Shown here piece by piece: positions 32,629-32,997 of a stretch of 64,000 nucleotides of DNA. Each line of letters begins with the position of its first letter. Position 1 is the first letter of the stretch. Below the pieces are notes generated by a model that saw only the letters and a program-made list of their open reading frames with translations, had not been told where the DNA came from and did no database searches. The position numbers and the translations under genes are program-made. This DNA is from Eledone cirrhosa (lineage: Eukaryota). The stretch covers positions 10,912,001-10,976,000 of the forward strand of contig OZ024762.1 in the NCBI GenBank assembly GCA_964016885.1, written 5' to 3'.

Positions 32629-32944
32629 ATATAGTTTATATATATATGTGTGTGTGTGTATATAGTTTATATATATATATATATATATATGAAGTAATTC
32701 CGTCGGAAAAGTCCAGGAAAAACGAGTGCTCTATGTAGGTAACAGAGCTTAATGGTTATGTAATAAACAACATAAGGCAATTATTTCATTTACCAGTGGT
32801 TTCTTAAAAAATTTTGCTTTCAATCATCAGAATGAAAAAACCCTGGACACCAGGATTTTTTCATTCTGATGATTGAAAGCAAAATTTTTTTGCTTTTAAG
32901 AAACCACTGGTAAATGAAATAATTGCCTTATGTTGTTTATTACA

Positions 32945-32997
<53 letters not shown>

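Follow-up and report, generated by a model that had tools for sequence, protein, structure and literature searches.

The locus raises the question of why a complete hammerhead ribozyme motif lies on the sense strand of an MBOAT intron directly behind its own antisense copy, and whether this arrangement serves the host gene. The first-pass annotation had suggested that the antisense arm masks the ribozyme and forms an ADAR substrate, and that editing or unwinding switches the transcript between masked and cleaving folds. Our analysis of the window (the whole 64,000-nt stretch of Eledone cirrhosa DNA) leads to a different explanation: most probably, a Penelope-like element (PLE) from a new family of the Hydra clade inserted here recently as a truncated head-to-head pair, which is inert in the MBOAT intron.

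The host gene lies on the + strand and is identified by a Pfam match to MBOAT with E = 5e-13 in the exon at 34557 (1.2e-8 in another search). Nine chained exons with AG/GT ends form an open frame from 22206 to 34754, and the proposed location in an MBOAT intron, in the sense orientation, is borne out by both observations. Seven exons were found upstream of the element, the first of them lacking a start codon; the designation as intron 8 would require an additional exon before 22206. The intron spans 31920–33608 on the + strand (1,689 nt). A 1,768-nt contig from run X4 of the same species matches exactly the segment 33609–33712 with zero differences; the exon appears to be spliced in this contig and MBOAT appears to be expressed, with X4 being taken as an RNA run solely because of this one exact exon match. 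Another MBOAT intron is filled by a tandem array of approximately 3.4 kb with a 29-nt unit (27640–31097), which stops only a few bases short of the acceptor of the 31103 exon. Two more arrays, one with a 79-nt unit (17161–17893) and a longer low-period one (42793–46220), are visible as repeated translations. Within the host intron itself, another high-copy repeat occupies 33010–33250 and is very deep in all four sequencing runs mapped.

The features of the intron and of the insertion are as follows (window coordinates).

31818–31919, + strand: MBOAT exon 5' of the host intron, from the exon chain.
32107–32690, no strand: (TA/TG)n microsatellite forming the left flank, read from the sequence.
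32691–32846, - strand: inverted 5'-truncated copy of the pseudo-LTR (pLTR) including the tail, i.e., the antisense arm; 93.5% identical to L031:7291-7460.
32691–32751, - strand: tail of 61 nt between the two 3' end sites, leading into an ORF in full copies.
32784–32837, - strand: second hammerhead copy, with stem II destroyed by a 7-nt deletion according to stem II energy.
32847–32948, + strand: 5'-truncated pLTR copy with the "short" 3' end of the family, assigned by its end class; 99% identical to L031:7288-7392.
32859–32919, + strand: type I hammerhead motif with a full core; predicted cut at 32912/32913; stems I and II covary across subfamilies.
32903–32911, + strand: near-palindromic stem III, ACCACUGGU; a 3-bp hairpin in the monomer and an 8-bp duplex in the dimer.
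32949–32989, no strand: (TA)n microsatellite forming the right flank, in which a target-site duplication is unreadable.
33609–33712, + strand: MBOAT exon 3' of the host intron, from the exon chain and the exact match to the X4 contig.

The hammerhead at 32859–32919 has all the parts that had been ascribed to it, namely, a full core, a 7-bp stem I, a long stem II and a GUA site. Like type I hammerheads, it combines the conserved core (CUGAUGA at 32866–32872, GAAA at 32900–32903), three helices and an NUH triplet, GUA, with H17 at 32912. Stem I is formed by 32859–65 and 32913–19, while stem II has 12 bp closed by a UUU loop. Stem III is estimated by folding at +0.4 kcal/mol as a hairpin and at -8.2 kcal/mol as a duplex, and two copies of the motif cofold into a dimeric hammerhead. 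These models place the ribozyme among the dimer-dependent ones. The only other hammerhead of the family in the 64-kb window is the minus-strand copy; there is one copy per strand and no further + strand copy. Forcing the monomer ribozyme fold on the isolated motif costs 2.2 kcal/mol. In published work, metazoan PLE hammerheads with a small palindromic helix III have no activity as monomers and low activity as dimers, axolotl hammerheads with a short helix III show 6–22% monomer cleavage in an hour, and one PLE hammerhead is protein-assisted. By analogy, a little cutting may be expected from the isolated motif.

A scan of the window at Rfam gathering thresholds yielded no matches, probably because the long stem II and the short stem III place the motif outside the models. 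The fold was assessed by covariation in an alignment of 21 copies. Two-sided changes were observed in 13 of 20 pairs, and the resulting score was reached by none of 500 shuffles and by no slide. Of the aligned copies, 20 had been chosen by hand to be diverse among the first 100 listed of 3,962 matches; the alignment represents few independent events or subfamilies, and the core and stem III were fixed by the search pattern. At the family level, the covariation argues that the hammerhead fold is real. A second hammerhead-like motif, from another repeat family, was observed at 3181–3330 (core at 3276; fold z -6). It has AU repeats as stem III, unable to pair with stem III at 32903, and a truncated inverted partner at about 3181–3209, in the same head-to-head pattern.

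A hairpin with a near-perfect antisense arm and an ACA loop, as described in the first-pass annotation, is indeed present. The arms 32752–32846 and 32850–32951 pair in segments of 58 and 41 nt with 98% complementarity, interrupted by a 7-nt bulge, and the fold of 32691–32960 has a minimum free energy of -146.3 kcal/mol (z -24, 0 of 200 shuffles). The two arms have diverged unequally. The antisense arm carries three private substitutions and the 7-nt deletion; its hammerhead copy has a stem II energy of 0.0 compared to -8.0, and does not adopt a hammerhead fold. The sense arm shows no differences in 105 columns. As the same is true for 42 of 77 other arms, its intactness is best read from these alignments as the mark of a young insertion rather than of selection.

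The arms belong to an abundant family. A genome search with the sense arm produced 724 candidates, the 40 best-scored of which are 100% identical over 99 nt. The 54-nt motif has 140 exact genome copies (65 forward and 75 reverse; control, 0), and a pattern of the core plus stem III has the 3,962 matches mentioned above, evenly divided between the strands (control, 0). In the locus L031, the hammerhead region continues through the 61-nt tail stretch (7392–7460, the counterpart of the tail in the window) and then into an ORF. The same order, pLTR followed by ORF, was found in 10 of 10 fetched long loci, these having been picked for ORF linkage. In L131, the ORF downstream of the hammerhead region is unbroken and encodes 711 aa. 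It contains KRMRWKA, with RWK replacing GxKF/Y, and SDKTKN, with DKG changed to DKT, both of which belong to the definition of the Hydra clade. The reverse transcriptase (RT) motifs FDIVDFYPS, GSYDSA and YRDDG match Hydra-1_Obim by eye. Also by eye, we identified CSCRKPDEC (a CxCX5C linker), a GIY-YIG-like end (VYEAK..YVGMT) without CCHH and, close to the C-terminus, CSLC (CxxC) and CPH (CxH). Among the Atlas neighbours of the 711-aa ORF, some members have HTH_animal, GIY-YIG and RVT_1. Sequence searches of the element ORF, including the 711-aa one, against Pfam and PDB gave no RT, GIY-YIG or endonuclease match, and a family search that found 997 relatives at E up to 1e-30 among 1.84 billion representatives added no classification. 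Based on the motifs, the by-eye match and the Atlas neighbours, the ORF is assigned to the Hydra-clade Penelope-like RT-endonucleases. Hammerhead stems I and II, the tail and the pLTR set the family apart as a new one within this clade.

Insertion into (TA)n agrees between the window, with its TA flanks, and the 21 pairs analysed below, which are flanked by TA or CA repeats. Copies do not accumulate with their starts at the cut site: by eye, only one of 25 ORF-linked loci (L040) begins within 2 nt of it. Every copy includes the cut site, which implies that RNA either uncut or religated served as the template, in agreement with the published PLE that inserts from uncut RNA (see below). L031:4540-6712 and L088–L107 represent a sister Hydra subfamily whose hammerhead has other stems I and II; it is arranged in tandem on the upstream side of the present family and has 2,837 genome candidates. 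In seven loci (L007, L012, L017, L020, L022, L024, and L030), the element carries along, in its pLTR 5' of the hammerhead, about 1 kb of sequence rich in TA/TG microsatellites. This cargo may seed microsatellites that serve the element as its own targets.

Head-to-head pairing is a recurrent architecture of the family. Two samples were examined for an inverted partner within 200 bp. From the 140 exact matches, the initial 30 were taken and L082 was dropped as a duplicate of L081; 13 of the resulting 29 copies have such a partner (three partial), and the other 16 have no close partner. In the sample L001–L030, 14 of 30 loci have one, three of them partial. The ends of the pairs are regular. One short and one tailed end are present in 18 of the 21 pairs in which both arms extend over the ribozyme, the window included. 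In these pairs, 36 of 42 inner ends lie at or near the TTTTAAAA palindrome, where BLAST ends are blurred; in the window, L061 and L086, the arms join about 25 nt further in. The two arms of a pair share minor alleles in 16 cases, compared to a mean of 4.8 after shuffling (0 of 2,000 shuffles), and therefore both derive from one source template or have been homogenised. Inspection by eye of the first 100 listed matches to the core pattern revealed seven closely spaced head-to-head pairs in which neither core is damaged, and several inverted pairs 4–10 kb apart.

Such a structure, with pLTRs, an inverted 5'-truncated copy and a tail at one end, corresponds to inverted 5'-truncated copies and one-sided tails as hallmarks of PLEs. 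Published work describes hammerhead pairs on opposite strands 100–700 bp apart in Schistosoma; an anole PLE that in vitro uses two internal RT start sites, with both target strands being cleaved and extended; and a PLE that inserts from uncut RNA and whose tail is delimited by two RT start sites. PMC11167929 and PMC6765202 were also among the sources. In the scenario that we consider, the element endonuclease would nick both strands of a TA tract, and reverse transcription would be initiated internally at two positions, 39 nt and about 107 nt 3' of the ribozyme site, which stays uncut. The truncated ends of a pair of short cDNAs, or of a single cDNA that folds back, would then be joined. We infer either two-strand priming or fold-back synthesis, which the data do not separate. 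In any such pair the antisense arm precedes the sense arm, whichever the direction of transcription, and this order needs no selection. The antisense arm, being transcribed first, would capture the ribozyme in either direction; the ribozyme would also lack a dimer partner. The intron would be spliced out, and editing or small-RNA pathways would act on the duplex, if at all, as a bystander.

Against this background, the claims on masking and editing fared differently. Masking is upheld by folding: with the antisense arm present, the ribozyme fold carries a penalty of 67 kcal/mol, and at all seven nascent lengths tested, the upstream arm pairs with the sense arm at a probability of 0.86–0.95. 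The long duplex is also a plausible candidate ADAR substrate. The proposed switch between the folds found no support, as the masked fold wins by 16–67 kcal/mol under every editing model tested. Editing of 25% of the 36 adenosines of the arm leaves a penalty of 62 (A read as G) or 47 kcal/mol (A made unpairable), and editing of 100% leaves 52 or 16 kcal/mol, respectively. Only the upstream arm was edited in these models, which is the most favourable case, and each partial level was sampled by 10 random draws; as nearest-neighbour estimates at equilibrium, the energies take no account of helicases and proteins. The duplex includes six adenosines belonging to the core and cut site, which would be edited too, and changes of such adenosines harm hammerhead catalysis. 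Editing is therefore predicted not to release the ribozyme.

A host-co-opted switch, in which MBOAT splicing is tuned by editing or unwinding that toggles between the masked fold and the cleaving one, would be in line with the intact sense core next to a broken minus-strand copy, with the length and near-perfection of the duplex, and with the apparent expression of MBOAT; moreover, intronic hammerheads with proposed host roles are described for amniotes. Apart from the energies and the core adenosines, it has to contend with a dimer-type stem III whose partner is absent from the window, an architecture common to about 45% of the sampled copies, a small asymmetry (four changes vs none) in a family where most other arms are unchanged as well, and the distance of the cut site from the splice sites of the intron (993 and 696 nt). 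We consider it very improbable. Titles and abstract openings in the literature, which do not amount to a full survey, contain no editing-controlled, antisense-masked intronic hammerhead.

A passive effect, with the duplex hyper-edited or diced and intron turnover slightly altered without any switch, is possible, if on balance rather unlikely. One transcript suffices to form a duplex of about 95 bp, and long inverted-repeat duplexes are ADAR substrates. On the other hand, contigs show no editing excess: A>G and T>C variants occupy 5 and 12 places in X4, compared to 4 and 12 in X5 and 4 and 11 in X7, both DNA-type runs; the comparison is weak, since rare variants are lost from contigs, most of which derive from other copies. 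Indeed, element contigs carry family letters at locus-private sites, with all X4 depth at 32723 being the family letter. Runs of three other organisms contain pieces of the family and some intron and exon pieces, and no listed contig, whether from these organisms or from other individuals, bridges the insertion junctions. Passive editing of the duplex is plausible, and it is compatible with an inert insertion. A MITE or another DNA-transposon derivative with terminal inverted repeats and an incidental hammerhead would account for a short, non-coding, palindromic, TA-flanked sequence. This origin is largely refuted by the nature of both arms, which are pLTR pieces ahead of a retroelement ORF; the outer ends are unequal (short vs tail), the inner ends are variably truncated, over half of the sampled copies are without a close partner, and the hammerhead stems covary across subfamilies. 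Very little credence can be given to it.

The young PLE insertion can be compared with several known systems. The Hydra clade of C-terminal EN+ PLEs was defined in section 11 of Craig et al. (2021; PMC8557442). Features shared with this clade and with Hydra-1_Obim include RWK, DKT, the CxCX5C linker, the missing CCHH, CxxC, CxH and a single ORF of about 2.1 kb, as well as (TA)n targets, inverted truncated copies and the one-sided tail. Hydra-1_Obim, the closest published relative, comes from Octopus, an origin that would suit a coleoid host without proving one. It also has a canonical hammerhead with stem III ACCA-N-UGGU; in contrast, stems I and II of the Eledone family differ from those of the published Hydra-1_Obim hammerhead, the tail is about 68–70 nt rather than 30–40, the pLTR is long and microsatellite-rich, and thousands of related hammerheads are present in the genome. 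With the dimer-dependent metazoan PLE hammerheads (Cervera and de la Pena, 2014; PMC4209133), the motif shares a short palindromic helix III, a long helix II, a variable base after A9, dispersed truncated copies and close opposite-strand pairs. Unlike them, it has no G10.1-C11.1 pair next to the core: the pair is U-A here, and the column is unpaired in 14 of 21 aligned copies. Many listed Hydra hammerheads also lack it.

The amniote intronic hammerheads in RECK, CTCL and DTNB (PMC6155905) are likewise of type I and located in introns of protein-coding genes. Those hammerheads show cross-species conservation and have been put forward as domesticated, whereas the Eledone copy is young, has 139 identical siblings, and is dimer-type and masked. 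Non-LTR retrozymes (PMC7229834; bioRxiv 10.64898/2026.07.22.740005) resemble it in being non-coding, PLE-related and equipped with a type I hammerhead, but are head-to-tail tandem repeats of about 170–400 nt, while the Eledone pair is head-to-head with one usable ribozyme per strand. Assignment to the retrozymes was rejected, as head-to-tail units with at least two same-strand hammerheads are absent from the 64-kb window.

By itself, the locus matters little, being just one recent insertion among the many of its retroelement family, and it carries a warning that in such genomes long intronic hairpins with ribozyme cores are usually transposon products. The family is of more interest, since it comprises thousands of recent hammerhead insertions, both masked (head-to-head) and unmasked (solo). 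One conjecture, which we consider unlikely, is that head-to-head insertion acts as a safety catch: unmasked sense copies, dimerising with another copy or in trans with element RNA, would cleave host pre-mRNAs and be purged, so that sense-strand intronic survivors would be enriched for self-masked pairs. If this is true, approximately 4,000 copies would constitute a natural experiment on PLE hammerhead cutting in vivo, and priming on both strands from the two RT start sites would have left its footprint in the genome as the short-plus-tail rule. The regularity of these pairs in any case bears on the mechanism of PLE insertion, and the coexistence of masked and solo copies makes the in vivo role of PLE hammerheads testable by orientation statistics.
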